Shown: positions 2,136 to 61,540, counted from the first letter of the stretch. The stretch: 64,000 nt of DNA from an uncultured Gemmatimonadales bacterium (GCA_963779755.1 CAVZZO010000003.1:1056001-1120000); one strand, 5' to 3'. Numbers and translations are program-made. Notes: generated by a model not told the origin, from the sequence alone.

Positions 2136-2562
2136 ATTCCACCAGGGGCCCGGCCGGGACGCCGAGCCGGGGGGGCCCGATGGGCGAGCTGGATCACGGC
2201 GGGATGCCTGACGGCACTGCCATCATGGCCGCTCCGGCATCGTCCGGCGCCGATTCCGGAGCCGGGAGGCCAGGCCGATAGTTCCTGGCCGGCGGGTCGC
2301 TGGCACGATTCTGGATAGGGAACGGGACCGCCCGGGCGGCCGGGGGGGTCTTCGGACCTGGTGGCAGGGCGCAATCTCGGAAATCTGCCCGTCAAATTGC
2401 CCGGGTTATCATTACGTCACGTCGGGGGCCCCGGCAGGATCGGACGCCCAGGCTGTACGCCCCGACCGACAGCATGGAGACCACCGGCCAGGTTGCGGCC
2501 GGTGCGGACCGGTTCTACCGGTTCGCGGCCCGGACGATTCGCTCATGATCAGGGAGTGGGGA

Positions 2563-4423: not shown

Positions 4424-5202
4424 GCGGCGAGATGGCGGCCCCGGCCCTGACGCCCGCGACCCTGGAGCAGCTGGTCGGCCTGGCGCATCGCGCCGGCGAA
4501 GCCATCATGGCGCACTATCACGAGGGGACCACGGCGGAACAGAAAGCCGACCGGAGCCCCATCACCGCCGCCGACCGCGACGCGCACCGGGTCATCGTGG
4601 GCGCACTGGAAGCCTGGTACCCCGGCGTCCCGGTGGTGTCGGAAGAAGGCAACATCCCGGGGCCCGGGGAGCGGGCCGGCTGGAACCGCTTCTGGCTGGT
4701 GGACCCGCTGGACGGCACCAAGGAGTTCCTGCACCGGAACGGCGAGTTCACCGTGAACATCGCGCTCATCGAGCAGGGCGAACCGGTGCTGGGCGTGGTC
4801 CATGCGCCCGCCATCGGCCGGACCTGGTACGCCGCCCGGGGGCTCGGCGCCTGGCGCCAGGAGGGCGGCAGCGCGCCGGTGCGGATCGAATCGCGCCCGC
4901 CCGAGCCCGGCCGGCCGCTCACCGTGGTGGAGAGCCGCTCGCATCCCTCGGCGGCACTGGAGGAATACCTTGCTACCCTCAACGTGGGGCGGCGGGTGCA
5001 GGCGGGCAGCTCGCTCAAGTTCTGCTGGGTGGCCGAGGGCCGGGCCGACATCTATCCCCGTCTGGGGCCCACCATGGAGTGGGATGTGGCGGCGGGCGAT
5101 TGCGTATTTCGCAACAGCGGCGAGGATGAGCCGCGACGCTCCCCGCTGCGGTATAACGCACCGGAGCTCAGGAACAACGGGTTTGTGATCGGGTTGGAAT
5201 AG
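4417..5202 (+). CDS. cysQ: 3'(2'),5'-bisphosphate nucleotidase (PAP phosphatase)
   Basis: KADRSPITAAD, VSEE, WLVDPLDGTKEF, GSSLKFCWVAEG, PTMEWDVAAG. Confidence 0.93.
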   Translation: MVSGEMAAPALTPATLEQLVGLAHRAGEAIMAHYHEGTTAEQKADRSPITAADRDAHRVIVGALEAWYPGVPVVSEEGNIPGPGERAGWNRFWLVDPLDGTKEFLHRNGEFTVNIALIEQGEPVLGVVHAPAIGRTWYAARGLGAWRQEGGSAPVRIESRPPEPGRPLTVVESRSHPSAALEEYLATLNVGRRVQAGSSLKFCWVAEGRADIYPRLGPTMEWDVAAGDCVFRNSGEDEPRRSPLRYNAPELRNNGFVIGLE

Positions 5203-5206
5203 AGAA

Positions 5207-7008
5207 ATGATGACTCACGAGAGCCACCGCAGATCAATCGGGCTGTTCCTGGGTCCAGTCCGTGCTGCGCTCTGGGTTGGTGCGGCAAGTGGCCTCGTTC
5301 AGGTGGCGGTCGAGCAGTTCGCCTGGCATTTTACCAGCGAAATCCGGAGCCTCGGCCCCAACATGATATGGATGGTTCCACTGGCCGTAATGCTGGCCTG
5401 CCTGGTGCCCGGGCTCGTGCTCGGACTCATTGCGCTCGCTCGCGGCAGGCCGTTGCCTGACGCGATGCTATACGGCCCGGTGCTCTTCCTGGGTGCGCTG
5501 AATCTGATCCTGTTCATTCCGGGCACGATTATTCTGTCGGATTATCTGATTGCCGCAGGGCTGGCGGTGATCGTCCTGCGGCTGGAGAGGCGCTACCATT
5601 GGCTGGACTGGCTCGTCCGCCGGACCGCGCTTCCCCTCCTGATGCTGCTGGCGGGGCTCACTGTGCTCGCGTTCGCAGGCGAGGCCATGCGGGAGCGCGC
5701 TGCTATTGCGAAGCTGCCTCCGGTACCCACCGGCAAGAACATACTGCTCCTGGTGCTGGATACTGTGCGAGGCATGGACACCGGCCTCGACGGTTTCGAC
5801 CGGCCGACCACTCCCGAGCTGGTGCGCTGGTCGGCGCGGGGAATCACCTTCTCCCACGCAATCGCACCCTCCTCGTGGACGCTGCCCAGCCATTCCACCA
5901 TGTTCACCGGCTATTGGCCTCAAGAGCTGGGAACTGACTGGAAGGTCCCTCTGAAGAGCAACGCCTACACCTTGGCAGAGTTCTTCGACAGCCTGGGCTA
6001 CGCCACCGCCGGGTTTGCAGCCAATCCCAGCTATGGAAGCCGCTATTACGGACTTGCCCAGGGGTTCCAGCATTATGAGGACTACCCGCTGTCGTTTGAG
6101 GAAGTCCTCACGAACGGCAAGCTCACGAGAGATTTCCTCAACCACCCCTGGGTTCGCCGCGTCTGGGGGTTTGACGATTACCTGGGACAGAAACAGGCGC
6201 CGGATGTGACCGGTCGGTTTCTTGAGTGGCTACCCCACAGGGGTGGCAGGCCGTTCTTCGCCTTCCTGAACCTGTTCGACGCCCACGAGCCGTACCTGCC
6301 GCCGGCCGGCTATGACAGCTTGTTCGCATCGAACACGGTCCGCCGGAATGATCTACTGGAGCACTTCCTTCATCAGGCTGAACGTCGGGAGAAGGAACAG
6401 ATGACGCCAGCCCAGGCGGAGCGCGAGCGTGAGGCGTACGATGCCGGTATCCGCTACATGGACACCTGGGTCGGGCGGATGTTGGACAGCCTGTATCGGC
6501 TGCACCTGCTCGACAGCACCATCGTCATCATTACGGCGGATCATGGAGAGCAGTTCGGTGAACACGGTAAGTTCGTACACGGTACTCGTTATACAGGCAG
6601 GTACTCGAAGTGCCCCTGCTCATCCTCGCCCCCGGCGAGCCCGGCAGGGGGACTCGTGTGGACCGGGTCGTGAGCCTGCGCGATCTCCCGGCCACTATTC
6701 TCGATCTGCTGGGCCGGCCCGATCACGCATTTCCAGGCACGACCTTGGCGGGCTGCTGGCGTGGCCCTGCCTGCGCAGCCAGCCCGGCGCTTTCCGAACT
6801 GCGTCTGGCCGCCGGCGGATGGGGAGCGTCTCTCTTCACAGATTCCTCTCACGCCATTATCTGGCACAATAACACCCACTTCTTTCTCTGGAAATCAGAC
6901 CCCGCGGAGAACGATGATCTGGCGAAGGCTCGGGGAGTACAGAACGTGGTCGCCTCCATCCGGGCGGCTCAACGCTCGAGTCAGAGGGCTGCGCTCTCCG
7001 ATGAATAA
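5207..7008 (+). CDS. Membrane-anchored sulfatase-fold protein, Thr-type, copy 2; -1 frameshift near 6584
   Basis: NILLLVLDTVR, SSWTLPSHSTMFTG, DAHEPY, ADHGEQFGEH. Adding one A at about 6584 restores HGNSLYRQVLEVPLLI, matching copy 3, and continues into ORF 6610..7008. Confidence 0.82.
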
Positions 7009-7381
7009 CCCCCGGAGCATGGTGGTCCCGGCCAAGCCCGACGCCACAGAAAGCGCAGCCGTCCTCTGGTTCACCGGCCTCTCGGGGGCCGGGAAGAGCA
7101 CCATCGCGAAGCGGGTGGCGGCCCGGTTGCGCCAGGCAGGCCACCGGGTGGAGGAACTGGATGGCGACGTCATCCGCGATATCTTCCCGGCGACGGGATT
7201 TACCCGCCCGGAGCGCGACCAGCACATCCGCCGGGTGGGCTGGCTGGAGCATCACTTGAGCGAGGGGCCGATGACCGAGGCGGCGAGTACCTCCCCTATG
7301 GGCCCGTATGGATCTGGATCTCTCCGAGACAGCCTTCCATCGGACCTCATCGCCATGCTGGCGCCGAGAGTTGACATATGA
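7001..7381 (+). pseudogene. cysC: Truncated adenylyl-sulfate kinase (5' part of cysC)
   Basis: VLWFTGLSGAGKSTIA...RDQHIRRVGWL is identical in protein to the gene at 9252. A 12-nt deletion follows, then unrelated sequence; the C-terminal half is missing. Confidence 0.8.
7058..7247 (+). repeat. 190-nt direct repeat, copy A (copy B at 9309..9498)
   Basis: Manual alignment shows 3 mismatches, all at synonymous positions. Confidence 0.9.
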
Positions 7382-9255
7382 GGGCTGGGTCCACGGGATC
7401 CCCCGGAATCCTCGAGTGGTATGAGCCGCTCATCCTGGCCGTCTGGATCGGTCTGGTGACGGGTCTCATTCAGGCCCTTGGGGTGCTGTTCCATCAGCGC
7501 GTGCTGGGTGATCTGATAACGCTGGGCCCCATGATGTGGTGGATGACTCCGCTGACGTTGGCGCTTCTGCTCGTCCCGGTAGCTGCAGTGGCCACCATTC
7601 TTGGCCGGTGGTGGCCGGGTATCTTCCGGTCTCGTTCCGTCCTTCTGGCCCTGTTGCTCACACCGGGCATCTTCAACGGCCTGCCTTTCTTCATCCCTAC
7701 AATGGGTTCGGGGGCGAGACTACTGTTTGCCGTTGGCATCGCGCTCGTCATCACCCGGATAGCAGAGCGGTTTCCTGTATCATCCCGGAGAATCATTGCT
7801 AGGACTCTTCTGCCGGTCGTTGGTGCCGTCACCCTGGCATTCCTGGCGACTCAACTGGCTCAACCAATCTGGGAACGATGGAAAATCCATACCTTAGCCA
7901 GGGCACCAAGCCACGCTCCTAACATCCTGCTACTTGTCCTTGATACTGTCCGGGGCGCGAACCTGAGCGTCAATGGTTATGGGCAGCCAACGACCCCATT
8001 CCTTGAGCGATACGCGAAGGGTGGCGTTCGATTTGCGAATGCGATCTCCACAGCCCCATGGACCCTCCCCTCGCATGCCAGCATGTTCACGGGCCACTGG
8101 CCTGACGAGCTCTCCGCCGACTGGGAAAGAGCTCTCGACGGATCTGCTCCGACGTTAGCGGAGGTTCTCAGCGCCCACGGGTACGTCACTGCCGGCTTCG
8201 TAGCCAACCTTGCGTATGTGAGCCGTGTCCACGGATTAAGCAGGGGCTTCGTTCACTATGAGGATTTCCGGGCTACTGCACCCGATTTCCTGGTCAGTGC
8301 CAAGCTGCCCCGGGATGTGGCGAACCTAGGGCGCGTTCGTAGGCTGGTGAGTTACTATGCGATTCTCGGGGAAAAGAAGGCCCCCGGGGTGGTCAACGAG
8401 GTTCTGCGCTGGCTCTCAGCGAGGAAGGCACACAGGCCCTGGTTCGTGTTCGCGAACTTCATCGACGCACACGAGCCCTGCATTCCTCCGGAATCTCTGG
8501 AGGAACGGCTAGGTAGCCCCGAGGTTCTGAAGGTGCGCCGGAAGCTGGGGCATTTGACTCACCTGCTATACCATGCGCTGTTGGAGAATAAGGCATCAGT
8601 TCTTTCGCCGGCTGGTGTAGAGCGGGAGCGCCTTGCCTATGATGCATGCCTCGCGTACCTGGACCAGAACCTGCAGCGTCTCCTTGATAGCCTCGCCACG
8701 CTTCGGCTGGACTCAAACACCGTCGTGATGATCGTCGCTGACCATGGCGAACAGTTTGGAGAACATGGACATTTTGTTCACGGGAATTCCCTGTATCGGC
8801 AGCTGATTCAGGTCCCCTTCCTCCTAGTCGCGCCGGGTCGTGTGCCGACGGGCGTGGTTGTCACAGATCCGGTTTCGTTACGGGATCTTCCTGCGACCAT
8901 CCTCGACCTGGCCGGCATCAACCAGGGGCCTATTCCGGGTAGCTCGCTTTCAGGATGTTGGACAGCTGATGGCTGTTCCGGCAGTCAGGTGATTTCAGAA
9001 CTCGTACTACCTGAAGGCCAACGCTCTTACTCGATAATCGAGGGCGGGCTACACTACATCAATTGGCGTGACCAGAAGAACTCCGGAGAACTCCTGTATG
9101 CCTGGCCTGATTCTGAGGAGACTCAGGACCTTGCTAAAGAGCCCGGATGGCAAAGTGCTGTAAGTAGGTTCCGCGCGGACTCGACAGATGCGGGAAACAG
9201 CCTTGCAGTCTGGCAATCCCGAGGCTCGCTACCATCAGAGTCCTTGGAGAGATGA
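7378..9255 (+). CDS. Membrane-anchored sulfatase-fold protein, Thr-type, copy 3
   Basis: N-terminal TM segments, PNILLLVLDTVR, TAPWTLPSHASMFTG, ADHGEQFGEHGHFVHGNSLY. Visibly more A/T-ending codons than the flanking genes. Confidence 0.87.
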   Translation: MRAGSTGSPGILEWYEPLILAVWIGLVTGLIQALGVLFHQRVLGDLITLGPMMWWMTPLTLALLLVPVAAVATILGRWWPGIFRSRSVLLALLLTPGIFNGLPFFIPTMGSGARLLFAVGIALVITRIAERFPVSSRRIIARTLLPVVGAVTLAFLATQLAQPIWERWKIHTLARAPSHAPNILLLVLDTVRGANLSVNGYGQPTTPFLERYAKGGVRFANAISTAPWTLPSHASMFTGHWPDELSADWERALDGSAPTLAEVLSAHGYVTAGFVANLAYVSRVHGLSRGFVHYEDFRATAPDFLVSAKLPRDVANLGRVRRLVSYYAILGEKKAPGVVNEVLRWLSARKAHRPWFVFANFIDAHEPCIPPESLEERLGSPEVLKVRRKLGHLTHLLYHALLENKASVLSPAGVERERLAYDACLAYLDQNLQRLLDSLATLRLDSNTVVMIVADHGEQFGEHGHFVHGNSLYRQLIQVPFLLVAPGRVPTGVVVTDPVSLRDLPATILDLAGINQGPIPGSSLSGCWTADGCSGSQVISELVLPEGQRSYSIIEGGLHYINWRDQKNSGELLYAWPDSEETQDLAKEPGWQSAVSRFRADSTDAGNSLAVWQSRGSLPSESLER

Positions 9256-9809
9256 GCACACTACACCATCCAGATTCCTTCATGACGGCTGATACGGCGC
9301 GACAGCCGGCCGTCCTCTGGTTCACCGGCCTCTCGGGGGCCGGGAAGAGCACCATCGCGAAGCGGGTGGCGGCCCGTTTGCGCCAGGCAGGCCACCGGGT
9401 GGAGGAGCTGGATGGCGACGTCATCCGCGACATCTTCCCGGCGACGGGATTTACCCGCCCGGAGCGCGACCAGCACATCCGCCGGGTGGGCTGGCTGGCG
9501 AGCCGGCTGGAGCACCACGGGGTGTTCGTCATCGCCTCGCTGGTGTCGCCCTACCAGGACTCGCGCCAGTTCGTGCGCGGCCTGTGCCGCCGGTTTCTGG
9601 AAATCTACGTCTCGACTTCGTTCGCCGAGTGCGAACGGCGCGACGTCAAGGGACTGTACGCCCGCGCCCGGCGGGGGGAAATCAGCCACTTTACCGGGCT
9701 GGACGATCCGTACGAGCCCCCGTCCGCGCCGGAGCTGGCGCTGGATACGGCGGGGATCACGGTGGAGCAGGCGGTGGAGAAGGTGATGGCACTGGTCGCT
9801 AGCTGCTAG
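9252..9809 (+). CDS. cysC: Adenylyl-sulfate kinase
   Basis: WFTGLSGAGKST, LDGD, CERRDVKGLY, FTGLDDPYEPP; ATGA overlap with the upstream stop. Confidence 0.95.
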   Translation: MSTLHHPDSFMTADTARQPAVLWFTGLSGAGKSTIAKRVAARLRQAGHRVEELDGDVIRDIFPATGFTRPERDQHIRRVGWLASRLEHHGVFVIASLVSPYQDSRQFVRGLCRRFLEIYVSTSFAECERRDVKGLYARARRGEISHFTGLDDPYEPPSAPELALDTAGITVEQAVEKVMALVASC

Positions 9810-9927: not shown

Positions 9928-10809
9928 ATGGACCATCTCGACCAACTCGAATACCGCAGCGTACACATCTTCCGGGAAGCGTACGCCAACTTCAAGAACC
10001 TGTGCATGCTCTGGTCCATCGGGAAGGACAGCACGGTGCTGCTGTGGCTGGCGCGGAAGGCGTTCTTCGGGCACGCACCCTTCCCGCTGGTGCACATCGA
10101 TACGTCCTTCAAGATCCCGGAGATGATCCGCTACCGCGACCGGCTGGCCGCGGAGTGGAATCTCAACCTGATCTACGGGCAGAACCAGGTGGCGCTGGCG
10201 GAGAAACGCACCTTCCCGGACGGGGCGGTAGACCGGATCACCTGCTGCAGCCTGCTCAAGACCGAGGCGCTGAAGCACACGCTGAGCGGCGAATGGCCCC
10301 GCTTCCGCTTCAATCACGCGAAGAAGACCTACGAGCAGGACACCAATACCGAGCCCTTCACCGGGGTGATCGTGGGCGCGCGCGCGGACGAGGAAGGCAG
10401 TCGCTCCAAGGAGCGCTATTTCTCGCCCCGCAGCAACCAGAACCTGTGGGACGTGGGCGACCAACCGCCCGAATTCTGGAACCAGTACAAGACCGAGTTT
10501 GCGCCCGGAACCCACGTGCGGATCCACCCGCTGCTGGACTGGACCGAGCTCAACATCTGGGAGTACATCGAGCGGGAGAAGATCCCTACGGTATCGCTCT
10601 ACTACGACCAGGGCGAGGGCAAGCGCTACCGCTCGCTGGGCTGCTATCCCTGTACCCTGGCGGTGGAGTCCGACGCGAAGAACGTGGAAGAGATCATCGT
10701 CGAGCTCAAGAGCGGCAAGTTCGCCAACATCGCCGAACGCTCCGGCCGCGCCCAGGACAAGGACGACGGCGGCGGGCTGGAGACGCTGCGGAAGGACGGG
10801 TACATGTAG
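9928..10809 (+). CDS. cysD: Sulfate adenylyltransferase small subunit
   Basis: [10 protein letters not shown]-loop, [52 protein letters not shown] end. Confidence 0.95.
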
Positions 10810-10973: not shown

Positions 10974-12326
10974 CTACTCTTCCGCCGGCTTGAAGGCGTT
11001 GGCGGTGAGGTCGCCCAGCAGCCCGTGCCAGACGTGGTTGGGATTATCCTCGACCTCGCGCACGATTGCCCGCATGCGGGCCAGTACCGGCGGCTCCTCC
11101 TCCTCGTAGACGTCTCCCTGCAGCAGCTTGAGCACGTCCAGCCGGTAGCGCGGATCGCGGATGAACGCGGTGAAGAGGACGTTGAGCCGGTAGTAGACGC
11201 TGATGAAATTGTACCAGTTCTTCGTGCCCCGCCGGATGGTCGACTCGTAGTCGTTGAAGGCGGCCCGGGAGCAGTCGCCTCCCTCCAGCGCCCGCAGAAT
11301 GTCGGTGTGGGCGAAACGTGAGCTGTTGAGCGCAATGCTGACGCCGGTGGAGAAGATCGGGTCCACGAAGCGGCCGGCGTCGCCCACCGTTAGCCAGTTG
11401 TCTCCGGCAATCTGGCTCATGCCATAGCTGTAGTCGCCCTCCTCGGTGAAGGCGCGCACCTGCTCGGCGCGGCGCAGGGCCTCGTGCAACTCCGGCCGGC
11501 TGGCCACGCAGTCCCAGAAGAACTTCTCCCGGTCGCCCGCGGCCTTGAAGTGCCGTTTCTGAGTGACCACGCCAACGCTGGTGACGGTGTCGCTGATGGG
11601 AATCTGCCAGACCCAGCTGTTGGTGATGGGCAGGAAGTGGACGTAGATGTAGTCTCCCTTCGTCCGGTCTCCCATCATGGTCGCATGCCGGTCGTAGCCG
11701 TCGAACCAGGTGTGGATGGCGTACTGATCGAACACCTTGTCCATCACCTTCAGCTTGAGCCGGTTCCCCAGGAAGGTGCGCCGGCCGCTGGCATCCACCA
11801 CCATGCGGCAGCTGGCCCCCGCCTCCTTCCGCCCCAGATTGAACCGGATCCGCGGCAGGCCCGGGTCGCTGAAATCTACGTCGCGGACACCGACCCCTTC
11901 GATCACCTGGGCTCCGAGCTTCTGGGCATGCTGCAGCAGTAGCGTGTCGAACTTCCCGCGGTCCACGTGGTAGGTGTAGTTCTGGTCTACCCCCTGCTGC
12001 TGCCGCTCCTCGAAGCGGATGTCGGCCATGCAATCGGCCTCCAATCCCTCCCACCCATGCTCGTAGGCGCGCGAGCTGCCGGTGGCGGTCCATATGGCCC
12101 CGAACTTGTGGGGGAATCCTGCCTCCTCCATGACGGGCAGGAAGTCCAGGTCCCGGAATACCCTGGTGCTCGAGGGAACCAGCGATTCGCCTACGTGGGG
12201 CCGGGGAAAAAGCTCGCGCTCGAAGACCGCGCAGGTCACCCCGGCCCTGGCCAGGTAGGCCGCCATGCTCGCGCCGGCGGGGCCGCCGCCGATGATGCCG
12301 ACATCGAAATCGGTCTGGGAAGTCAT
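10974..12326 (-). CDS. pltA: Flavin-dependent halogenase, pyrrolyl-carrier-protein type (PltA-like)
   Basis: GGGPAG, FPRPHVGESL, catalytic-Lys region FPHKFGA, WVWQIP (WxWxIP), GDAGRFVDPIFSTG. The C-terminus NWYNFISVYYRLNVLFTAF..DPRYRLD.LKLLQGDVY closely matches my recollection of PltA. ATG 12326 has a GGAGGA RBS. Confidence 0.9.
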   Translation of the reverse strand: MTSQTDFDVGIIGGGPAGASMAAYLARAGVTCAVFERELFPRPHVGESLVPSSTRVFRDLDFLPVMEEAGFPHKFGAIWTATGSSRAYEHGWEGLEADCMADIRFEERQQQGVDQNYTYHVDRGKFDTLLLQHAQKLGAQVIEGVGVRDVDFSDPGLPRIRFNLGRKEAGASCRMVVDASGRRTFLGNRLKLKVMDKVFDQYAIHTWFDGYDRHATMMGDRTKGDYIYVHFLPITNSWVWQIPISDTVTSVGVVTQKRHFKAAGDREKFFWDCVASRPELHEALRRAEQVRAFTEEGDYSYGMSQIAGDNWLTVGDAGRFVDPIFSTGVSIALNSSRFAHTDILRALEGGDCSRAAFNDYESTIRRGTKNWYNFISVYYRLNVLFTAFIRDPRYRLDVLKLLQGDVYEEEEPPVLARMRAIVREVEDNPNHVWHGLLGDLTANAFKPAEE

Positions 12327-12774
12327 CGGCTCCTCCGGTCCGGGGCCGCCGGAGAGCAGGACCTGCAAGCGTTCGCGCAGCAGACGAATCCGGCGCGCGC
12401 GGCTGAGATCTTGTCAGCGCCCTTGCGGTCGATGGTCTGGTACCGGTTGCAGATCACCGTGAGATAGACCGATCGGAAATGGGGTTGTGGCCTGCCCGCC
12501 ACAACGGCCGCAGCAGCACAGCAGGGATGATCCAGCCTACCGGCGGAATCGCGACGGCCGGTGACTCCCCGATACCCGTCCGGGAGCCGGAGCACCCTCC
12601 CGAGCACAAACCATGCCCTCGAGGCCTCCCTGCGGGCCGGGTGCCGGCCATGCCGAGGGCCGCTAGCTTACCCGGAGCAGGTGCCCGCAGCTGGAATGAG
12701 CCCGCAGCCCGGGGCCAACGCGCACAGTTCCTGCTGCCGGCGATATCGCTGGGACCACGGATGAGGAGCCGGTC
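12327..12774. promoter_or_regulatory. Divergent intergenic region between halogenase and prolyl-PCP dehydrogenase
   Basis: About 450 nt between head-to-head genes, both with GAGGAG-type RBS; no promoter motif confidently read. Confidence 0.4.
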
Positions 12775-13923
12775 ATGGATTTCGCCTGGTCTGTTGAACA
12801 GCTCGCGTTCCGGGACGCGGTCATCGACTTCGCACGTAGGTCTCTCCAGGACGATCTGATCTCGCGGGACCGCGCGAGCGAATTCAGCCGGGAGCAGTGG
12901 AGCCGGTGCGCCGAGTTCGGTATTCAGGGGCTTCCATTCCCCGAGGAATTCGGCGGGGCCGGCAGCGACATTCTGACGACCATCCTCGCCATGGAATCGC
13001 TGGGGTACGGCTGCCGGGACAACGGGCTGCTGTTCGGCCTCGCGGCGCAGATGTGGAGCGTGCAGATGCCGATCCACCAGTTTGCCTCGGCCGAGGCGAA
13101 GCACCGCTACCTGCCGAAGCTCTGCCGCGGCGAGTGGATCGGGGCCCACGCCATGAGCGAACCCGATTCCGGGTCGGACGCATTTGCCCTGCGCACCACG
13201 GCAGTCCGCGAGGGCGAAGAATACATCCTGAACGGCACCAAGACTTTCGTCAGCAACGGCCCCGTGGCCGACCTGTTTCTCGTCTTTGCCACCATCGACC
13301 GGAGCAAGGGCTTCCTCGGCCTCACCGGATTCCTGGTGGAGCGGGAGTGGCCGGGCGTCGGGGTGAGCCGGGAGATCGACAAGATGGGCCTGCGCACCTC
13401 GCCCATGGCCGAGGTGACGCTGGAGAACTGCCGGGTGCCGGCGGTGAACCGGATGGGCCGCGAGGGACGCGCGGGCGCCCTGTTCAACGACTCCATGGAG
13501 TGGGAACGGGCCTGCATCCTGGCCAGCGCCATCGGCACCATGGAGCGGCAGCTGGAAGAGTCCATCGCCTATGCTCAGCAGCGGCACCAGTTCGGCCAGC
13601 CAGTCGCCAAGTTCCAGGCCGTGGCCAACCGGCTGGTCGCCATGAAGCTGCGGCTGGAAACCGCGCGGCTGCTGCTCTACCGGGCCGCCTGGCGCAAGTC
13701 CCGGGGTGACGCGCAGTCTGGTATGGATGCCGCGCTGGCCAAGCTCTGCCTCAGCGAAAGCTGGGTGGCGTCGGCCCTCGATGCAGTCCAGATCAGAGGC
13801 GGGTACGGCTATACCACGGAGTATCAGGTGGAGCGGGAACTGCGGGACGCTGTGGGGGCGACCCTCTATTCCGGCACCTCTGATATTCAGAAGAACCTGG
13901 TTGCCCGCTACCTCGGCCTGTGA
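12775..13923 (+). CDS. pltE: L-prolyl-[PCP] dehydrogenase (acyl-CoA dehydrogenase family; PltE/RedW/AnaB-like)
   Basis: MDFAW start, LGYGCRDNGLLF, AHAMSEPDSGSDAF, KMGLRTSP, WERACI, GATLYSGTSDIQKN; clustered with a carrier protein and a Pro adenylation enzyme. Confidence 0.85.
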   Translation: MDFAWSVEQLAFRDAVIDFARRSLQDDLISRDRASEFSREQWSRCAEFGIQGLPFPEEFGGAGSDILTTILAMESLGYGCRDNGLLFGLAAQMWSVQMPIHQFASAEAKHRYLPKLCRGEWIGAHAMSEPDSGSDAFALRTTAVREGEEYILNGTKTFVSNGPVADLFLVFATIDRSKGFLGLTGFLVEREWPGVGVSREIDKMGLRTSPMAEVTLENCRVPAVNRMGREGRAGALFNDSMEWERACILASAIGTMERQLEESIAYAQQRHQFGQPVAKFQAVANRLVAMKLRLETARLLLYRAAWRKSRGDAQSGMDAALAKLCLSESWVASALDAVQIRGGYGYTTEYQVERELRDAVGATLYSGTSDIQKNLVARYLGL

Positions 13924-14184
13924 CCACATTGGTGTCGCAACCCTGCAACAAGCATCAGCACCATCCCCGCTGGTCCGGCCGCGTCTATACAGCTTAATCG
14001 CTTTATTGGCAATATCTTAACGGCCTCTTCCAGCTTCAGGGCATGGTGGCACAGGCATAGCACCCTCCACCTGGGTTTCGCCTTCAACCATGGTCGCTTC
14101 CCGCGGCCAGATCCGCCTCCGGCCGCCGGCACTCTCCCAGGACCGCCGGTGGGGAAGCCTCGCACTCCGGCAGGAGCAGTGTGA

Positions 14185-16737
14185 ATGACGGCTGGAACAC
14201 TGACGGCGGCAGCTCGGGAGCAAGCGGGTACCAGAATCGCCCGCGCGGACGTCCAGCAGCTCGCCCTGGTGACGGTGCAGCTGGTGCTGGCGCTCCTGGT
14301 GGTTCGGACGTTCCAGCTGGAGAGCCGGACGTTCTACAATATCCTGCTGCTGGCCGCCGGCGGTTTCCTGGTGAGCGCGCTACTCCCATTGCGCTTCCGG
14401 CAAGCCTGGTTCGTGGCCGTGTCGTTCACCGGGATCGGGGTCGCCTTCGGGGTGGCCGGAGGCGTGTGGCTGGTCGGCGCCGGCCTGTGCCTGATCGCCA
14501 TCTGTCACCTTCCGATCGCGTTCCGCTGGCGCGTGGTGGGCCTGCTGGCGGCGGCGGGCGGCCTGGCGCTCATGCGGGCAGGCAAGATCACCTCACCGTG
14601 GCCCCTGTCGATCTGGCCCATCCTGGGCTCGATGTTCATGTTCCGCCTGATCATGTACATGTACTCCCTGCGGTTCGACAACACGCCGCCGAAGCTGTCG
14701 CGGACGCTGGCGTACTTCTTCATGTTGCCGAACGTTGCGTTTCCGCTGTTTCCGCTGGTGGACTACGGCGTGTTCGCCCGGACCTACTACGAGACGGGCG
14801 CGTTCCGCATCTACCAGCGCGGCGTCAAGTGGATCGCCCGCGGCATGCTGCATCTGCTTCTCTATCGCCTGGTGTACTACCACCTGGTGATGCAGCCGGC
14901 CGATATCACCAGTCTGGGCGGCCTCCTGCAGCACTTCGCTTCCACCTTCCTGCTCTATCTCCGGGTATCCGGCCAGTTCCACATCGCGGTGGGGATGCTG
15001 CACCTCTTCGGCTTCCACCTGCCGGAGACGCACCACCTGTACTACCTGTCGTCCAGTTTCACCGACCTCTGGCGCCGGACGAATATCTACTGGAAAGATT
15101 TCATCATGAAATACGTCTACTATCCGGCGTATTTCAGGACACGGAGGCTGGGGCCGACGACGGGGGTCGTGATTTCCATGGGCGTGGTGTTCGTGCTCAC
15201 CTGGCTGTTCCATTCCTACCAGTGGTTCTGGCTGCGGGGCAGTTTTCCGCTGACGGCAACCGACGGCCTGTTCTGGTTCGTGATGACCGCCTTCCTCCTG
15301 GTCGCCGTGCTGAAGGAAACGCGGCAGGGACGACGACGGACCCTGATCACGGAGAAGCGCTGGCGCGTCCGCCGCGGCCTGGCGGCGGTGGCGATGTTCG
15401 CCATCATCAGCATGCTGTGGACCCTGTGGGACAGCAGTTCCGTACGCGACTTCCTGAGCCTGTTCCAGGTCGCCACCCGCGTGAGCCTGAAACAACTCCT
15501 GGCCATCGGAGGCATCGTGGGGCTGTACCTGGGGATCGCCGGGTGGCCGTGGGGCGTACAGACGCTGGCGGAGCGACAGAACAAGGCACCGAAGCACTGG
15601 TGGAGGCAGTCGAGCCTGCAGACCATGGCGCTCCTGGCCGGCCTCCTGGCGCTGGGCAACGCATGGACCCGGGAACACCTGCTCAACCGGACGGCACGAC
15701 AGGTCATGGTCTCCCTGCAGGAGAGCCGGCTCAACGACCGGGACGCCGCCATGCTGCAGCGGGGCTACTACGAGCAACTCATGAACGTCGAGCGCTACAA
15801 CAACCAGCTGTGGGACATGTACCGGGACAAGCCGCCCGGCTGGGTGGGGGCGACCAAGACCGATGCGTACCACGCGCTGCCCACCCTGCTGGGCGGCGAG
15901 TTGAAGCCGTTGGCTCGGCTGGAACTCAAGGACGCGCTGTTCAGCACCAACCGGTGGGGCATGCGCGACCGCGACTACACGTTGGAGAAGCCTGTGGGTA
16001 CCGTGCGGCTCGCCCTGCTTGGACCCTCGGACGTCATGGGCTCGGGCGTGACGGATTCGCAGACATTCGAGAATGTGGTGGAGCGCCGGCTCAACCGGGA
16101 GGCGGCGGCCGATTCGCAGCACTACGAGATCCTGAATTTCTCGGTAGCGGCCTTCAGCCTGGTCCAGCAGGCGGTAATGCTGGAGGAACGGGTCTGGAAG
16201 TTCGATCCGGATGCGGTGGCGGCCACCTACCATCCGGGATCCGACGGGCGAGTCGCCTACCAGCACCTGGCCAAGTCGTTCCTGGACAACATCCCGATCC
16301 ACGACGCGACGCTGAACGACATCATCCGGCGATCCGGGGTTCACCGGGGGGACGTACAGCCGGTGGTCTTTCGCAAGCTGCGGCCCTACAGCCGTGAGAT
16401 CGAGCAATGGTGCTTCCACACCATCGCCTCCGCTGCCCGGGCCCACGGCGTCCCGGCGCTCCTGCTGGTGGTGGACCCGCCGGGCGAACCCTCCAGAGCG
16501 GAGGATCCGATGCTCCCCATCGCCCGCCGGGAAGGCCTCGTCATCGCAGACATCCGCGACGCCTACGGCTCCCACGACCTGGATTCCCTGATGCTGGCCG
16601 AGTGGGATGAGCATCCCTCCGCGGAGGCACACCACCTGATGGCGCAGCGGATGTACCAGGAGCTCAAGGCCCACCCCGAATTTCTGCGACCTCACCGGCC
16701 CGAAGAGGCCGGAACCGCCACCCCGGAGGGGCAATGA
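14185..16737 (+). CDS. MBOAT O/N-acyltransferase fused to a C-terminal SGNH-like domain (AlgI/DltB plus AlgJ/DltD-like)
   Basis: Multi-TM N-terminal half with YYLSSSFTDLWRRTNIYWKDF and TWLFHSYQWFW (MBOAT His). Soluble domain with TNRWGMRD, LLGPSDVMGSGV, EILNFSV and WDEHPS. AGGAG RBS. Confidence 0.85.
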   Translation: MTAGTLTAAAREQAGTRIARADVQQLALVTVQLVLALLVVRTFQLESRTFYNILLLAAGGFLVSALLPLRFRQAWFVAVSFTGIGVAFGVAGGVWLVGAGLCLIAICHLPIAFRWRVVGLLAAAGGLALMRAGKITSPWPLSIWPILGSMFMFRLIMYMYSLRFDNTPPKLSRTLAYFFMLPNVAFPLFPLVDYGVFARTYYETGAFRIYQRGVKWIARGMLHLLLYRLVYYHLVMQPADITSLGGLLQHFASTFLLYLRVSGQFHIAVGMLHLFGFHLPETHHLYYLSSSFTDLWRRTNIYWKDFIMKYVYYPAYFRTRRLGPTTGVVISMGVVFVLTWLFHSYQWFWLRGSFPLTATDGLFWFVMTAFLLVAVLKETRQGRRRTLITEKRWRVRRGLAAVAMFAIISMLWTLWDSSSVRDFLSLFQVATRVSLKQLLAIGGIVGLYLGIAGWPWGVQTLAERQNKAPKHWWRQSSLQTMALLAGLLALGNAWTREHLLNRTARQVMVSLQESRLNDRDAAMLQRGYYEQLMNVERYNNQLWDMYRDKPPGWVGATKTDAYHALPTLLGGELKPLARLELKDALFSTNRWGMRDRDYTLEKPVGTVRLALLGPSDVMGSGVTDSQTFENVVERRLNREAAADSQHYEILNFSVAAFSLVQQAVMLEERVWKFDPDAVAATYHPGSDGRVAYQHLAKSFLDNIPIHDATLNDIIRRSGVHRGDVQPVVFRKLRPYSREIEQWCFHTIASAARAHGVPALLLVVDPPGEPSRAEDPMLPIARREGLVIADIRDAYGSHDLDSLMLAEWDEHPSAEAHHLMAQRMYQELKAHPEFLRPHRPEEAGTATPEGQ

Positions 16738-16997
16738 CACGCGAGGAGATCACCCGGACCGTCAAGGAGTTCATTCTCTCTCACTTTCTTCCGGGAGAGG
16801 ACCCCGCGGCGCTGACCCCCACGACGGCTCTGATCACCGATGGAGTGCTGGATTCCCTGGCCACCCTGGAACTGGTCTCGTTCCTGGAAGAGCGCTACGG
16901 CATCGAGCTGGAGGCCCATGAAGTTGACGCTTCCCGGATCGGCACCCTGGAGGGCATCGCCACTCTGGTGCTCGGCAAGACGGGCAGCAAGGTCTAG
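16734..16997 (+). CDS. Stand-alone peptidyl/acyl carrier protein (PltL-like)
   Basis: LITDGVLDSLATLELVSFLEERYGI phosphopantetheine Ser motif; ATGA overlap with the MBOAT gene. Confidence 0.9.
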   Translation: MTREEITRTVKEFILSHFLPGEDPAALTPTTALITDGVLDSLATLELVSFLEERYGIELEAHEVDASRIGTLEGIATLVLGKTGSKV

Positions 16998-17002
16998 CCC
17001 CG

Positions 17003-18547
17003 GTGCTGTTGCAGCAGTACCTGGACCGGTCAGCCGCCCGGTCGCCCGAGGCGATCGCGGTGGTGGATCCCGAACGGGGGGGCTGCATCTCCTACCGGGA
17101 CCTGGCGGTGCTGTCCGATCGGGTCCGTGACCGGTTGCGCTGTCAGGGGGTCGTTTCCGGCGATCGGGTCGGGATCTACCTGCCCAAGTCCATCGATGCG
17201 GTTGCGGCCCTCTTCGGCGTGCTCAAGACCGGTGCGGCCTACGTCCCCATCGATCCCGGCTCCCCGGCCTGGCGGGCCGCATACATCCTGGGCAATTGTG
17301 CGGTCCGGACCGCCATCGTGGAGGAGGGCTTCCTGGCGTCCCTCCGCGCCGATCCCGATGTACCCGCCATCCAGCCGCTGGTCGTCCCTCAGGCCGGAAA
17401 CGGGGGACTCCGCGCCGCGCTGGACGCCGCCGACGCTCTGGCACCCGCGCCCCCCAGCGAGACGGCCCGGCCCGGCCCCGAGGCGCTGGCCTACATCCTC
17501 TACACCTCCGGCAGCACGGGGAAGCCCAAGGGCGTGATGCTCTCGCAGCAGGCGGCCACCAGTTACGTAGACTGGTGCTCCGAAGTCTTCCGCCCGACCG
17601 CAGACGACCGCTTCTCGTCACACGCCCCGTTCCACTTCGACCTGTCCATCCTGGACATCTTCGTGCCGCTGAAACACGGTGCCCGGCTGGTCCTGGTCGG
17701 GGAGGAACTGGGAAAAGAGCCGCTGCGGCTGGCCCCGGTGATCGCCGGCCAGGGCATCAGTGTCTGGTATTCGACGCCCTCGATCCTCAACCTTCTGGCC
17801 CGCTACGGCAAGCTGGACCGCTACAGCTGGGGTGCGCTGCGGCTGGTCCTCTTTGCCGGAGAGGTATTCCCCGTGCCACAGCTTCGAGAGCTGAAGGCGC
17901 TCTGGCCCCGCCCGCGCTACTTCAACCTGTACGGACCGACGGAAACCAACGTCTGCACCTACTACGAAATACCCGCCGTGGTGCCGCCCGGGCGGAAGGA
18001 TCCCTACCCCATCGGGCGATCCTGCGAGCACCTGCGGTGCCGGGTGGTGGATCAGGACGGCCGGGAGGTCCGGCGGGGCGAGGAGGGCGAGCTGGTGGTG
18101 CACGGTCCCGGCGTGATGTCGGGCTACTGGAATCTGCCGGAGCAGAATGCCAGCGCGTTTCTGGTGGACCAGGGCGGAATGCGCTGGTACCACACCGGCG
18201 ACCTGGTGGTTGAGGAGCCGGAGGCGGGATACGTCTTTCACGGCCGTCGGGACCGGATGGTCAAGCGCCGCGGCTACCGGGTGGAGCTGGGTGAGATCGA
18301 AGCCGGGCTGGCGGCGCACCCCGGGCTGCGCGAAGTGGCCGTGACCGCGGCGGCAGACAACGCGTCCGGCGTGCGCATCAAGGCGTTCCTGGTCCATCAG
18401 GGAGAGCGGCCCTCGCTCATCGCGCTGAAGCAGTTCTGCGTGGAGCGGCTGCCGCGCTACATGGTCCCCGACCAGTTCGCTTTTCTCGACGCTCTGCCGC
18501 GTACCTCCACTGACAAGATCGACTATCAGGCCCTGAAAACGCTCTGA
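17003..18547 (+). CDS. pltF: Stand-alone L-proline adenylation enzyme (PltF/RedM/CloN4-like)
   Basis: YILYTSGSTGKPKG, FDLSIL, VWYSTP, LFAGE, NLYGPTETNVC, YHTGD, PRTSTDKID; manually extracted specificity code DLLYLALVCK. Confidence 0.87.
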   Translation: MLLQQYLDRSAARSPEAIAVVDPERGGCISYRDLAVLSDRVRDRLRCQGVVSGDRVGIYLPKSIDAVAALFGVLKTGAAYVPIDPGSPAWRAAYILGNCAVRTAIVEEGFLASLRADPDVPAIQPLVVPQAGNGGLRAALDAADALAPAPPSETARPGPEALAYILYTSGSTGKPKGVMLSQQAATSYVDWCSEVFRPTADDRFSSHAPFHFDLSILDIFVPLKHGARLVLVGEELGKEPLRLAPVIAGQGISVWYSTPSILNLLARYGKLDRYSWGALRLVLFAGEVFPVPQLRELKALWPRPRYFNLYGPTETNVCTYYEIPAVVPPGRKDPYPIGRSCEHLRCRVVDQDGREVRRGEEGELVVHGPGVMSGYWNLPEQNASAFLVDQGGMRWYHTGDLVVEEPEAGYVFHGRRDRMVKRRGYRVELGEIEAGLAAHPGLREVAVTAAADNASGVRIKAFLVHQGERPSLIALKQFCVERLPRYMVPDQFAFLDALPRTSTDKIDYQALKTL

Positions 18548-34045: not shown

Positions 34046-34777
34046 CTATCCCCGGCGATACTTCCAGAAGGTCCGCGAGCCGATGAACCAGTCGCGCAGG
34101 CCGATCTTCTTCCCTTCGGAACGGGACCGCGGGAAATAGCGGATCGGCACTTCGCGGATGGTGCAGCCCCGGGCGAGCAGCCGGGCGGTGATCTCGTGGT
34201 CCAGCTCGAACCCCGAGGATCCGAGCGGCAGCGATTGCACCAGAGCGGCGGGAAACAGCTTGAGCGCGGTCACGGTGTCGGTCAGGTAGGTGCCGGTGCA
34301 TGCCAGCGCCACCAGGCTCAGGCTCTGGCCGCCCAGGTAGGCGGGCCAGCTCTGGCCGGGATACTTGCCGGCCAGCAGGTTGCGCAGCGGCCCCGCCTCC
34401 GGATGCTTCAGATAGCGGCTCCCGTAGACCGCGTCCACCCCCTTCACGCCGAGCGCGCGCAGCATGGGGAGATAGTCCGCCGGATCGTATTCCAGATCCG
34501 CGTCCTGGATGATGAGATACGTCCCGGTGGCCAGCCGGATGCCGGCGCGCACCGCGGCGCCCTTGCCGCTGTTCCGCTCCAGCCGGTGCAGCCGGACATC
34601 GGGAAACCCCGCCACGATCTCCGGGGTCCGGTCGCGGGAACAGTCGTCCACCACGACGATTTCCCGGTCCACCCCGGCCGCCCGGAGATCGAGCGCGCGG
34701 ATCCGCTCCAGCAGCGTGCCGATGAAGCGTTCCTCGTTGTAGGCCGGGATGACGATGGACAATACCGGCAGGCTCAT
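34046..34777 (-). CDS. Polyprenyl-phosphate glycosyltransferase (GT2, DPM1-like)
   Basis: IVIPAYNEE, VDDCSRD, NSGKGAAVR, IQDADLEYDP, VYGSRY, GFELDHEIT. Confidence 0.88.
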   Translation of the reverse strand: MSLPVLSIVIPAYNEERFIGTLLERIRALDLRAAGVDREIVVVDDCSRDRTPEIVAGFPDVRLHRLERNSGKGAAVRAGIRLATGTYLIIQDADLEYDPADYLPMLRALGVKGVDAVYGSRYLKHPEAGPLRNLLAGKYPGQSWPAYLGGQSLSLVALACTGTYLTDTVTALKLFPAALVQSLPLGSSGFELDHEITARLLARGCTIREVPIRYFPRSRSEGKKIGLRDWFIGSRTFWKYRRG

Positions 34778-38266: not shown

Positions 38267-38268
38267 GC

Positions 38269-61437: not shown

Positions 61438-61451
61438 TTCGCGGCAGTAGT

Positions 61452-61540
61452 CCTCGACCTTCTCGACCCCCTCGACCCCCTCGACCCCCTCGACCGATCG
61501 AGAAGGTCGAGATGCTCGAGAGGGTCAAGGAGGTCGAGGT
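61452..61540. repeat. Inverted nonamer arrays (CCTCGACCC family)
   Basis: Same unit as 26164..26233 and 46887..46930. Confidence 0.85.

Follow-up and report, generated by a model that had tools for sequence, protein, structure and literature searches.

A PltA-type halogenase cassette linked to a divergent MBOAT-SGNH fusion protein suggests a Dlt-like relay for halogenated pyrrole groups

Genes resembling those for a pyoluteorin-type halopyrrole starter unit were found next to a gene for a membrane-bound MBOAT-SGNH fusion protein in a window of 64,000 nucleotides, which is the whole stretch of DNA analysed here. The genome is described as soil, Gemmatimonadota-like. This arrangement raises the question of where the acyl group built on the carrier protein of this cassette is delivered. 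No description of this gene combination was found in the literature searched.

All five genes of the original prediction were recovered by gene calls, four of them also with Pfam matches, arranged as one divergent unit, and each of them is present as a single copy in the genome. The flavin-dependent halogenase of the PltA/Mpy16/ChlB4 type is encoded on the minus strand (10974..12368), divergently from the dehydrogenase gene and the rest of the operon on the plus strand. This operon encodes a flavoenzyme from the acyl-CoA dehydrogenase family that resembles prolyl-carrier-protein dehydrogenases (12775..13923), a fused divergent MBOAT-fold and SGNH protein of 850 amino acids (14185..16737), a small carrier protein of 87 amino acids (16734..16997), and a stand-alone, PltF-like adenylation enzyme (17003..18547). 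The ATG of the carrier gene overlaps the TGA of the MBOAT-SGNH gene, and this ATGA, on which the translational coupling proposed before is based, could be read directly from the sequence. The divergent intergenic region between halogenase gene and operon (12369..12774, delimited by the gene coordinates and the sequence) is presumed to hold two promoters; a simple scan of this region detected no sigma-70-like site. An exosortase gene and a Wzc-like gene are located upstream, and glycosyltransferases, sulfate-activation genes, and membrane sulfatase-family proteins are encoded in the window. The surroundings are those of an exosortase, sulfation, and glycosyltransferase locus, in line with the predicted glycan-locus setting.

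The four-gene core (MBOAT-SGNH, carrier, ligase, and dehydrogenase) recurs in many phyla. Among the 43 MBOAT-SGNH loci with at least 5 kb of sequence on both sides, a carrier gene was present in all 43, a ligase gene in 39, a dehydrogenase gene in 39, and all three in 38. When sequences are grouped at 50% identity, the family comprises about 1,700 clusters. A search for the five-gene synteny inside glycan loci, as proposed together with the original prediction, gave a divided result. The core is widespread, and the neighbours of the other halogenase-bearing loci encode sulfotransferases, AlgX/SGNH proteins, Wzy_C, and a flippase. However, the halogenase is a rare, accessory addition (6/79 loci), with relatives beside the operon in five other loci from three phyla, and the core cassette of several genomes (L018, L033, L073, and L035) is situated among housekeeping genes and not in a glycan locus. 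Because of the latter, a glycan acceptor is not a general feature of the cassette.

To our knowledge, the only known fate of products of PltF/PltL/PltE/PltA-type enzymes is their use as starter units. As in pyoluteorin biosynthesis, the cassette might supply an assembly line or another condensing enzyme whose genes lie elsewhere, and the MBOAT-SGNH protein would then be an unrelated neighbour. As noted before, no PKS, NRPS, or thioesterase was found among the 54 ORFs scanned in the window. A PKS or NRPS just outside the window, named beforehand as a finding that would speak against the prediction, was detected neither in the 16 ORFs of the 20 kb upstream nor genome-wide, and the 32 ORFs scanned at six other loci contained none either. 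The whole genome, which is 97% complete, encodes zero condensation domains and no modular PKS. Its ketosynthases are exclusively FabF/FabB-like, the nearest being a lone FabF-like enzyme 580 kb from the cassette, which is the one genomic finding in favour of a starter-unit role. With no condensation domains and only FabF/FabB-like ketosynthases, there is no assembly line to take over the cargo of the carrier. A PKS, an NRPS, a thioesterase, or any other known off-loading enzyme was not found anywhere in the genome, and the only cassette-linked acyl-handling protein is the membrane-bound MBOAT-SGNH protein, whose linkage is conserved across phyla. Hence, we consider a starter unit for a distant assembly line very improbable.

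The adenylation enzyme was recognized by Pfam AMP-binding (288.7 bits) and by the amino-acid adenylation model TIGR01733 (360.2 bits, above the cut-off of 317.4). Its anticipated similarity to PltF was confirmed: PltF (6o6e) was the best single-domain PDB match (340 bits), and the 401 bits obtained for LgrA are the sum of two domains with approximately 200 bits each. In the pocket region (residues 196–345), PltF scored highest with 122 bits, ahead of another proline ligase with 85 bits; no further enzyme exceeded 66 bits, and DltA did not exceed 60 bits. The segments FDLSILD, WYSTPS, and GPTETNVCT correspond to FDLSVLD, WYSVPS, and GPTETNVCT in PltF, and six pocket positions, presumably belonging to the specificity code, are the same in both enzymes (D213, L214, L217, Y256, V317, and T319; the last three code positions are not included in this comparison). 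The pocket residues are retained in 46 to 52 of 52 cassette ligases. For residues 320–400, DltA enzymes were the best PDB matches (46 and 45 bits, PltF 30.8 bits), and the DltA models scored 260.7 and 249.3 bits over the ligase, below their cut-offs of 476 and 559.85. From the pocket sequence, the enzyme is predicted to load L-proline. The carrier protein matched Pfam PP-binding (PF00550) with 21.5 bits (cut-off 20.8), and its phosphopantetheine attachment site, D40-S41, does not vary among the 35 homologues aligned.

All three ACAD Pfam domains were found in the dehydrogenase, and the acyl-CoA dehydrogenase-family gene of the original prediction proved to be of the prolyl-carrier type. The best PDB match by far was AnaB (4irn, 470 bits), followed by another chain with 333 bits, and PigA (5zw0) reached 304 bits. 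The top NCBIfam models were those of the pyrrole-forming PigA (441.7 bits) and RedW (413.5 bits), ahead of the next model with 311.6 bits; both scores are below the curated equivalog cut-offs (500 and 650, respectively). The product of AnaB is given as 1-pyrroline-5-carboxyl-ACP and not a pyrrole in the part of PMC6053186 that deals with this enzyme. Because the nearest solved dehydrogenase stops at the pyrroline-5-carboxyl stage, it is chiefly the halogenase that leads us to assume pyrrole formation in the cassette. This distance from PigA and RedW would fit a cargo that is oxidized only once, as by AnaB, and exported as a pyrroline-carboxyl (dehydroprolyl) group, with the halogenase acting at a different step or on a different compound. 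Weighed against the ranking of the NCBIfam models and the properties of the halogenase, such a non-pyrrole cargo appears improbable.

The halogenase, which lies divergently beside the operon and has relatives in the five further loci mentioned above, matched Pfam Trp_halogenase (2.5e-30). In the PDB search, its full-length matches to PltA, Mpy16, and ChlB4 reached 588 bits (Mpy16, 5buk), 579 bits (7fco), and 570 bits (PltA, 5dbj), against at most 143 bits for other halogenases and at most 30 bits for tryptophan halogenases, which agrees with the predicted PltA type. The GxGxxG and WxWxIP motifs reported earlier are present in the translation as GIIGGGPAGA (FAD-binding) and WVWQIP. K88 in the segment FPHKFGA was aligned with the second lysine of FPKKFGA in PltA, which we take to be the catalytic Lys73. 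The ORF as listed comprises 464 amino acids; judged from the nucleotide sequence, translation probably begins at position 12326, with an ATG preceded by GGAGGA, which would give 450 amino acids. According to the relevant section of PMC8407142, the substrates of PltA and Mpy16 are pyrroles tethered to a carrier, which argues for a pyrrole as cargo of the cassette.

The assignment of the 850-residue protein as an MBOAT-SGNH fusion was supported by fold and profile comparisons but not by Pfam. No Pfam family, including the SGNH families, matched the protein even at an E-value of 10, and NCBIfam gave no match either; Pfam MBOAT (PF03062) detected only another gene of the genome, located on contig C1. 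Some relatives of the protein do carry a PF13472 annotation. An AlphaFold2 model was obtained with a pLDDT of 84.6 and a pTM of 0.81. In a VIA comparison with this model, DltB (8jem_A) was identified as the best structural match of the MBOAT-fold core (residues 47–428, 14323..15468; Z 21.5, rmsd 4.4 Å, 360 residues aligned), and PORCN (Z 18.7) and HHAT (Z 17.6) were further matches with this fold (Foldseek E 1e-6). The profile–profile comparison with canonical MBOATs in hhalign yielded 96.6% probability and an E-value of 4.8e-10. The core, which is followed by extra membrane helices, contains H266, a W296-R297-R298-x-N300 motif, and H343. In the hhalign alignment, N300 coincides with the histidine of WRRWH in canonical MBOATs. 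This histidine is described as universally conserved in MBOATs and as required in DltB (PMC12148441, in the sections on the MBOAT active site), and the canonical MBOAT of the same genome possesses it together with an FXYXXF motif. Among 151 diverse relatives of the 850-residue protein, position 300 is asparagine in 148 and histidine in none. The protein is a divergent MBOAT in which asparagine replaces the universally conserved histidine, and since asparagine stands where characterised MBOATs have an essential histidine, the chemistry of this domain is not simply transferable from DltB.

The loss of this histidine, as well as the missing Pfam MBOAT match, could be explained by a dead MBOAT domain that only holds an SGNH esterase in the membrane or forms a channel for it, while another, unrecognised enzyme would use the carrier product. 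However, H266, R298, H343, G263, and G270 are retained in 148 to 151 of the 151 relatives, which points to strong constraint, and the carrier gene is linked in every well-flanked locus (43/43). The combination of His266 and Asn300 resembles a different active site kept by selection and not decay, and a dead domain seems decidedly improbable.

An R-G-Y-Y-E-x-L segment (residues 526–532, 15760..15780), placed after the last membrane helices and ahead of the SGNH domain, was identified by its conservation (Y528 in 151, Y529 in 150, G527 in 146, and E530 in 145 of the 151 relatives); the model has low confidence in this part (residues 525–537). A canonical FXYXXF motif was not found at a comparable place in the protein, and no plausible DltX-like small ORF was found between the cassette genes. 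RGYYExL occupies the position equivalent to FXYXXF/DltX. By analogy with the FXYXXF motif as outlined in PMC12148441, a tyrosine of this segment is a candidate acyl shuttle.

The SGNH-fold domain (residues 543–833, 15811..16683) was assigned from fold matches and conservation. CgnD (8a2n) was its best structural match (Z 20.6, residues 543–835), and a profile comparison pointed weakly to an SGNH esterase (E 0.0011). The residues of the Ser, Asn, and Asp/His blocks are retained in nearly all of the 151 relatives (S615 in 151, N651 in 149, D808 in 147, and H810 in 149), with an Asp-His spacing of DxH and not DxxH. The matches following CgnD are true hydrolases, namely TesA-type and acetyl-xylan esterases (Z 14–16, with 15–16 for the TesA type). 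Together with the frequent position of the core cassette outside any glycan locus, this would suit a secretion device, in which the acyl group would cross the membrane through the MBOAT-SGNH protein and be hydrolysed by the SGNH domain or transferred by it to a small alcohol, releasing free (halo)pyrrole-2-carboxylate or a simple ester without decorating a polymer. We regard such secretion as unlikely, because glycan-building neighbours are present here and at the other halogenase-bearing loci, and because the characterised bacterial MBOAT/SGNH pairs covered in the corresponding part of PMC12148441 all acylate envelope polymers.

With some reserve, we favour the reading of the cassette as a Dlt-like relay that exports halogenated pyrrole-2-carbonyl to an acceptor outside the cytoplasm. 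Regarding this pathway, each testable gene assignment of the original prediction and the absence of an assembly line were upheld; against it stand the asparagine in place of the MBOAT histidine, the failure to find FXYXXF or a DltX-like ORF, the scores of the dehydrogenase below the PigA and RedW cut-offs and its similarity to AnaB, which stops short of a pyrrole, the DltA matches of ligase residues 320–400, the core cassettes among housekeeping genes, and the missing Pfam and NCBIfam matches of the 850-residue protein. The original prediction is modified in that the conserved unit is the four-gene core, with the halogenase as an accessory. Beyond the observed gene identities, folds, synteny, and missing assembly line, we infer the following chemistry. 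L-proline would be loaded onto the 87-residue carrier by the adenylation enzyme, as suggested by the identity of its pocket with that of PltF. The prolyl-S-carrier would then be oxidised by the flavin dehydrogenase, presumably as far as pyrrolyl-2-carbonyl, since halogenases of the PltA type require an aromatic ring. One or two halogens would be introduced into the tethered pyrrole by the halogenase with reduced flavin from an unlinked reductase. The carrier may subsequently dock at the cytoplasmic face of the MBOAT-fold domain, through which the acyl group would pass, probably onto the RGYYExL tyrosine at the outer face, in analogy to DltX and PatA. Finally, the acyl group would be transferred to Ser615 of the SGNH domain and from there to a hydroxyl group of an envelope molecule. 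At this locus, the acceptor is most likely made by the exosortase, sulfation, and glycosyltransferase genes around the cassette.

A broader proposal is more tentative: possibly, the cassette represents a multi-phylum relay that esterifies an envelope polymer or lipid with proline-derived pyrrole-2-carbonyl, yields an organohalogen here and in a few other genomes, and operates with the His266/Asn300 MBOAT variant and a built-in Tyr-Tyr shuttle. If true, it would be the first covalently halogenated modification of a bacterial cell surface, and this active-site variant would be new for MBOATs.

Among the known systems, AnaC/AnaD/AnaB of anatoxin-a biosynthesis likewise combine a ligase for proline with a carrier and a prolyl-ACP dehydrogenase, AnaB being the solved structure nearest to the dehydrogenase of the cassette. 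The AnaB product is, however, passed on to polyketide synthases according to the pathway section of PMC6053186, whereas the cassette lacks these and has a halogenase. The ligase, carrier, flavin dehydrogenase, and halogenase of pyoluteorin biosynthesis (PltF/PltL/PltE/PltA) all have counterparts here. In contrast to such pyrrole cassettes, the present one is linked to a membrane-bound MBOAT-SGNH protein instead of a PKS, NRPS, or thioesterase, and its dehydrogenase resembles AnaB more than PigA. Mpy, Bmp, Clz, PigI/G/A, and RedM/O/W are further thiotemplated pyrrole sets. The polymer O-acetylation systems PatA/PatB and AlgI/AlgJ/AlgX also couple an MBOAT fold to an SGNH transferase and share additional helices behind the MBOAT core as well as a conserved segment with tyrosine ahead of the SGNH part, as far as they are described in PMC12148441. 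Unlike the cassette, they consist of two separate proteins, use acetyl-CoA without a carrier protein, and retain the histidine of WRRWH as well as FXYXXF at the C-terminus. In the Dlt pathway, teichoic acids are D-alanylated by the ligase DltA, the carrier DltC, the MBOAT DltB, the microprotein DltX, and the SGNH protein DltD. The cassette differs from it in a cargo predicted to be a proline-derived (halo)pyrrole and not D-alanine, in the flavin dehydrogenase and halogenase that would act on the tethered cargo, in the union of MBOAT and SGNH in one polypeptide, in the asparagine at the catalytic histidine position, and in the invariant RGYYExL as a candidate substitute for DltX and FXYXXF, neither of which was found; judged from its closest relatives, the host is probably a Gram-negative member of the Gemmatimonadota. 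Common to both are a stand-alone adenylating enzyme for the loading of a small carrier, a carrier gene abutting the MBOAT gene, a membrane protein with the MBOAT fold, for which DltB is the best match, and an SGNH domain on the far side of the membrane.

The five genes of the cassette were found where the original prediction had placed them, and the motifs it had named in the halogenase were recovered in the translation. The halogenase gene (10974–12368, minus strand), whose product contains GIIGGGPAGA and WVWQIP, likely starts at an ATG at position 12326, located 3′ of a GGAGGA in the sequence. The remaining four genes are on the plus strand, divergent from the halogenase. The acyl-CoA-dehydrogenase-family gene (12775–13923) and the gene encoding the 850-residue MBOAT-SGNH membrane protein (14185–16737) come first. 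They are followed by the gene for a carrier protein of 87 residues (16734–16997), with its start codon and the upstream stop codon sharing the sequence ATGA, and by the gene for an adenylation enzyme (ligase; 17003–18547), which starts 5 bases past the stop codon of the carrier. No convincing candidate for a DltX-like small ORF was detected in the 261-bp gap upstream of the MBOAT-SGNH gene, and a promoter and terminator scan of the locus yielded nothing exceeding the shuffled background. A search of sequencing runs listed no RNA data set, and a single DNA data set, from a soil metagenome, with a 0.15 share of the sequence words.

Among the solved structures, the full-length matches of the halogenase were 5buk (588 bits), ChlB4 (7fco, 579 bits), and PltA (5dbj, 570 bits), the first of which is Mpy16 according to PMC8407142. 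Other halogenases with solved structures scored at most 143 bits, and tryptophan halogenases about 30 bits. Lys88 in the motif FPHKFGA was aligned to the second lysine of FPKKFGA in PltA, which corresponds to PltA residue 73 by alignment count and which we take to be the catalytic lysine. None of the NCBIfam models was passed by the halogenase (best model CmlS, 157 bits vs. a cut-off of 900).

The best NCBIfam models for the dehydrogenase were PigA (441.7 bits, cut-off 500) and RedW (413.5 bits, cut-off 650), both below their cut-offs; the model ranked next scored lower by about 100 bits or more. AnaB (4irn), a prolyl-ACP dehydrogenase, was the best match among solved structures with 470 bits, followed by the next chain with 333 bits and PigA (5zw0) with 304 bits. 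The product of AnaB is 1-pyrroline-5-carboxyl-ACP, as stated in PMC6053186. Because AnaB stops at this stage, the sequence of the dehydrogenase alone cannot tell whether the oxidation reaches the pyrrole. A cargo that is a pyrroline rather than a pyrrole would fit the AnaB match, but is considered quite improbable; the main argument for an oxidation that would continue to the pyrrole is the neighboring gene, which encodes a halogenase of the PltA type.

The ligase passed the amino acid adenylation model TIGR01733 (360.2 bits, cut-off 317.4). LgrA ranked first among the solved structures with 401 bits, but this score is the sum of two domains (190 and 207 bits), so that the proline ligase PltF (6o6e, 340 bits) is the best single-domain match. 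In the specificity region (residues 196–345), the scores were 122 bits for PltF and 85 bits for 7thn, another proline-carrier ligase, whereas the remaining solved structures scored at most 66 bits and DltA at most 60 bits. The segments FDLSILD, WYSTPS, and GPTETNVCT were aligned to FDLSVLD, WYSVPS, and GPTETNVCT of PltF, so that the six pocket positions that could be mapped, presumably correctly assigned to the specificity code, are identical, with the final three pocket positions lying outside this reading. The pocket residues are conserved in 46 to 52 of the 52 cassette ligases. Residues 320–400 point against PltF, since the top matches of this part were DltA enzymes (46 and 45 bits), with PltF ranking only 47th among the 60 matches listed (30.8 bits). 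The carrier narrowly passed the Pfam PP-binding model (21.5 bits, cut-off 20.8), and its Asp40-Ser41 pair was invariant among 35 aligned homologues. Its top NCBIfam model was the OlsH/OlsI ornithine-lipid carrier (95.1 bits, cut-off 130), which far outscored the models of the FAS ACP and DltC. The paper on the OlsH/OlsI ornithine-lipid pathway deals with an enzyme resembling GH3 and with an alpha/beta hydrolase, and its text does not contain an acyl carrier protein. As no link to the cassette was found, this connection was dropped.

For the 850-residue membrane protein, Pfam gave no match even at an E-value of 10, and NCBIfam gave only an SGNH hint of 16.9 bits. A confident AlphaFold2 model was obtained with 30 homologues (pLDDT 84.6, pTM 0.81) and compared with known structures using Foldseek and VIA. 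The best match of residues 47–428 was DltB (8jem_A; Z 21.5, rmsd 4.4 Å, 360 aligned residues), and PORCN, LPCAT3, MBOAT7, and HHAT reached Z-scores of 17 to 19. Residues 543–835 matched SGNH proteins, namely CgnD (Z 20.6) and TesA-type esterases (Z 15–16). Searching the family profile against solved structures returned weak SGNH matches only (E 0.0011) and no MBOAT; thus, the link to MBOATs rested on the fold search and on a profile–profile comparison with hhalign. The latter aligned the family to canonical MBOATs (n = 5; four taken from relatives and one encoded in the genome of the window) over 316 columns with 96.6% probability and an E-value of 4.8 ∙ 10−10. The canonical MBOAT L086 of the same genome (G000:C1:861025–864666; 649-residue ORF, Pfam 115 bits, WRRWH) indicates that the ordinary and the divergent kind coexist in one genome.

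The hhalign alignment sets FTDLWRRTNIYWKDF opposite SDFWRRWHISLSTWL, which places Asn300 at the position of the catalytic histidine of all characterized MBOATs. This histidine is described as "universally conserved" and as required in DltB in the PatA paper (PMC12148441). Over 151 diverse family representatives, position 300 is Asn in 148 and His in none, so that the replacement is family-wide and not a local oddity. His266 is kept in 148 and His343 in all 151 representatives; in the SGNH domain, Ser615 (151/151), Asn651 (149/151), Asp808 (147/151), and His810 (149/151) are similarly conserved. A catalytically dead MBOAT, to which the loss of the histidine might point, is considered very improbable next to the conservation of His266 and His343. 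The PatA paper also describes a C-terminal FXYXXF acyl-shuttle motif in canonical bacterial MBOATs, and the five canonical proteins collected here end in an FIYFQF-type sequence. No such motif was found at a comparable place in the divergent family. Its members share an invariant R-G-Y-Y-E-x-L segment (Tyr528 in 151 and Tyr529 in 150 of the 151 representatives), located about 36 residues beyond the end of the alignment with canonical MBOATs, within the sole low-confidence stretch of the model (residues 525–537) that connects the membrane part to the SGNH domain. We propose that this segment may serve as a built-in acyl shuttle.

The original prediction was a Dlt-like pathway attaching halopyrrole groups to the cell surface. 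A Dlt-like relay that delivers a halogenated proline-derived acyl group to an envelope hydroxyl is the best-supported reading and, on balance, a probable one. The carrier would be loaded with proline, the bound proline oxidized, and the oxidized group halogenated. The acyl group would then cross the MBOAT-fold domain to a tyrosine at the outer face, shift to Ser615, and finally be handed to the envelope hydroxyl. One finding that the original prediction named as speaking against such a pathway was a PKS or NRPS just outside the window that uses the carrier, and none turned up. No PKS, NRPS, or thioesterase domains were detected in the 54 ORFs of the window, in 16 ORFs located within 20 kb upstream of it, or in 32 ORFs around six further halogenase-bearing loci. 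The genome (4.23 Mb, four contigs, 96.97% complete) contains no condensation domain, and each of the five cassette genes is present in a single copy. Strong ketosynthase matches were limited to three stand-alone genes genome-wide. Two of these are FabF/FabB-sized and located on another contig; the third is a lone FabF-like gene on the same contig, 580 kb away (fabF model 196 bits, below the cut-off). Use of the carrier cargo by a distant condensing enzyme is therefore extremely improbable. Release of the acyl group, either as the free acid or in a small ester, would suit the TesA-type matches of the SGNH domain, but we regard it as unlikely.

Scanning one genome per species revealed at least 601 stretches that encode proteins related to the MBOAT-SGNH protein; the best 79 of these were used as loci. 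They belong to Gemmatimonadota, Acidobacteriota, Pseudomonadota, Myxococcota, Chloroflexota, Planctomycetota, Verrucomicrobiota, and others. Linkage was counted in those 43 of these best 79 loci (of at least 601) that are flanked by 5 kb or more of sequence in each direction. A carrier gene was located within 6 kb of the MBOAT-SGNH gene in all 43, a ligase and a dehydrogenase gene in 39 each, and all three partners in 38 (exceptions: L038, L055, L058, L069, and L076). Halogenase homologues with at least 40% identity were present within 10 kb in only 6 of the best 79 loci (3 of the 43 well-flanked ones), with 77%–80% identity at L001, L003, and L006, 62% at L015, and 44%–45% at L037 and L076; weaker paralogues occurred at three further loci of this set. 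Since the halogenase is rare and the partners are nearly constant, the conserved unit is a four-gene core, of which the window holds a halogenating variant. The MBOAT-SGNH family comprises 1,724 cluster representatives at E ≤ 10−30 among 1.84 billion.

Further paralogues or gene copies were observed at several loci. One to three extra Trp_halogenase-family paralogues (28%–33% identity to the window halogenase) adjoin the cassette at L001, L002, L003, L006, L056, and L065, two or three mostly adjacent MBOAT-SGNH copies are found at L002, L003, L006, L008, L056, L058, L061, and L072, and L065 carries a second ligase and a second carrier. A Na_H_Exchanger-family transporter gene directly adjoins the halogenase gene at two loci from distant phyla, Acidobacteriota and Anaerolineales (L015:4300–5604 and L076:18346–19827), which may hint at ion or halide supply; none is located beside the window's own halogenase.

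The window encodes many GT2 and GT4 glycosyltransferases, PMT_2 and GT87 proteins, an LPG_synthase_TM protein, polysaccharide deacetylases, an asparagine synthase, and a UDP-sugar dehydrogenase. Four large membrane-anchored proteins (36–2135, 5207–6673, 7378–9255, and 40076–42271) carry a C-terminal sulfatase-family domain preceded by 175 to 280 residues without a Pfam match. Sulfate activation genes of the CysN, CysC, CysD, and CysQ types are present, an unusually heavy investment for a glycan locus. Two or three APS-kinase-like genes (6761–7381, 9252–9809), a CysD-like gene (9928–10809), and a CysQ-like gene (4417–5202) lie beside the sulfatase-family proteins. A CysN/CysC-like protein (2545–4423, plus strand) is apparently split across two overlapping frames, with GTP_EFTU in ORF 2545–4299 and domain 2, an eEF1A_C-like domain, and the APS-kinase part in ORF 3137–4423, which could be explained by a frameshift, by faulty assembly, or by the presence of two genes. 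An AT3 acyltransferase of 803 residues (61434–63845, plus strand; N-terminal Acyl_transf_3, 78 bits; long C-terminal part without a family match) represents a second, different route of surface acylation at the same locus. A CofD-like (2-phospho-L-lactate transferase) domain was found in an 847-residue protein (36173–38716, minus strand) next to a MobA-like nucleotidyltransferase gene (34774–36084), both inside the glycan locus.

The stretch just upstream of the window (L091, G000:C3:1036001–1056000) encodes an exosortase (TIGR02602, 143.7 bits, above the cut-off), DUF3485, a Wzc-like GNVR protein, an SLBB export protein, a sigma-54 activator and histidine kinase, and a FadD-like AMP ligase. 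This set indicates that the cassette is located in a polysaccharide region of the PEP-CTERM/exosortase type. The other halogenase-bearing loci contain sulfotransferases, AlgX/SGNH proteins, a Wzy_C protein, a flippase, and carbamoyltransferases. Among six core loci (62 flanking ORFs), two are glycan loci (L021 and L007) and four (L018, L033, L073, and L035) lie among housekeeping genes, so that a component of the envelope in general, instead of a product of the adjacent glycan genes, may act as the acceptor.

In the literature searched, which leaves most subscription journals outside, none of the papers listed linked MBOATs to carrier systems for prolyl or pyrrole groups, and none combined ornithine lipid, acyl carrier protein, and MBOAT; MBOAT, acyl-CoA dehydrogenase, and acyl carrier protein together led only to unrelated lipid metabolism papers. 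A preprint on sponge halogenases (10.64898/2026.08.03.742642) does not concern the cassette, its available text containing neither acyltransferases nor dehydrogenases. The present analysis adds a near-complete genome without any assembly line for the cargo, the exchange of the MBOAT histidine for Asn throughout the family together with a candidate Tyr-Tyr shuttle segment, AnaB instead of a pyrrole-forming enzyme as the nearest solved dehydrogenase, and the location of the cassette near exosortase and sulfation genes. The core without a halogenase occurs widely among bacteria of soil, sediment, and wastewater, so a common surface modification may have escaped standard glycan and lipid analysis, because esters are removed by mild base. 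Some organisms carrying the cassette are in culture, for example, Steroidobacter flavus CGMCC 1.10759 (L018) and a Rhodoferax isolate, which makes the hypothesis directly testable. The current model of MBOAT catalysis, which relies on the histidine together with an acyl-tyrosine shuttle, is also put to the test by a variant in which this histidine is missing. To our knowledge, the MBOAT relay has so far been known only for D-alanine and acetate, and the conversion of carrier-bound proline to pyrrole with halogenation only from soluble antibiotics. If the proposed relay is correct, this chemistry would also decorate the cell envelope as a structural modification.
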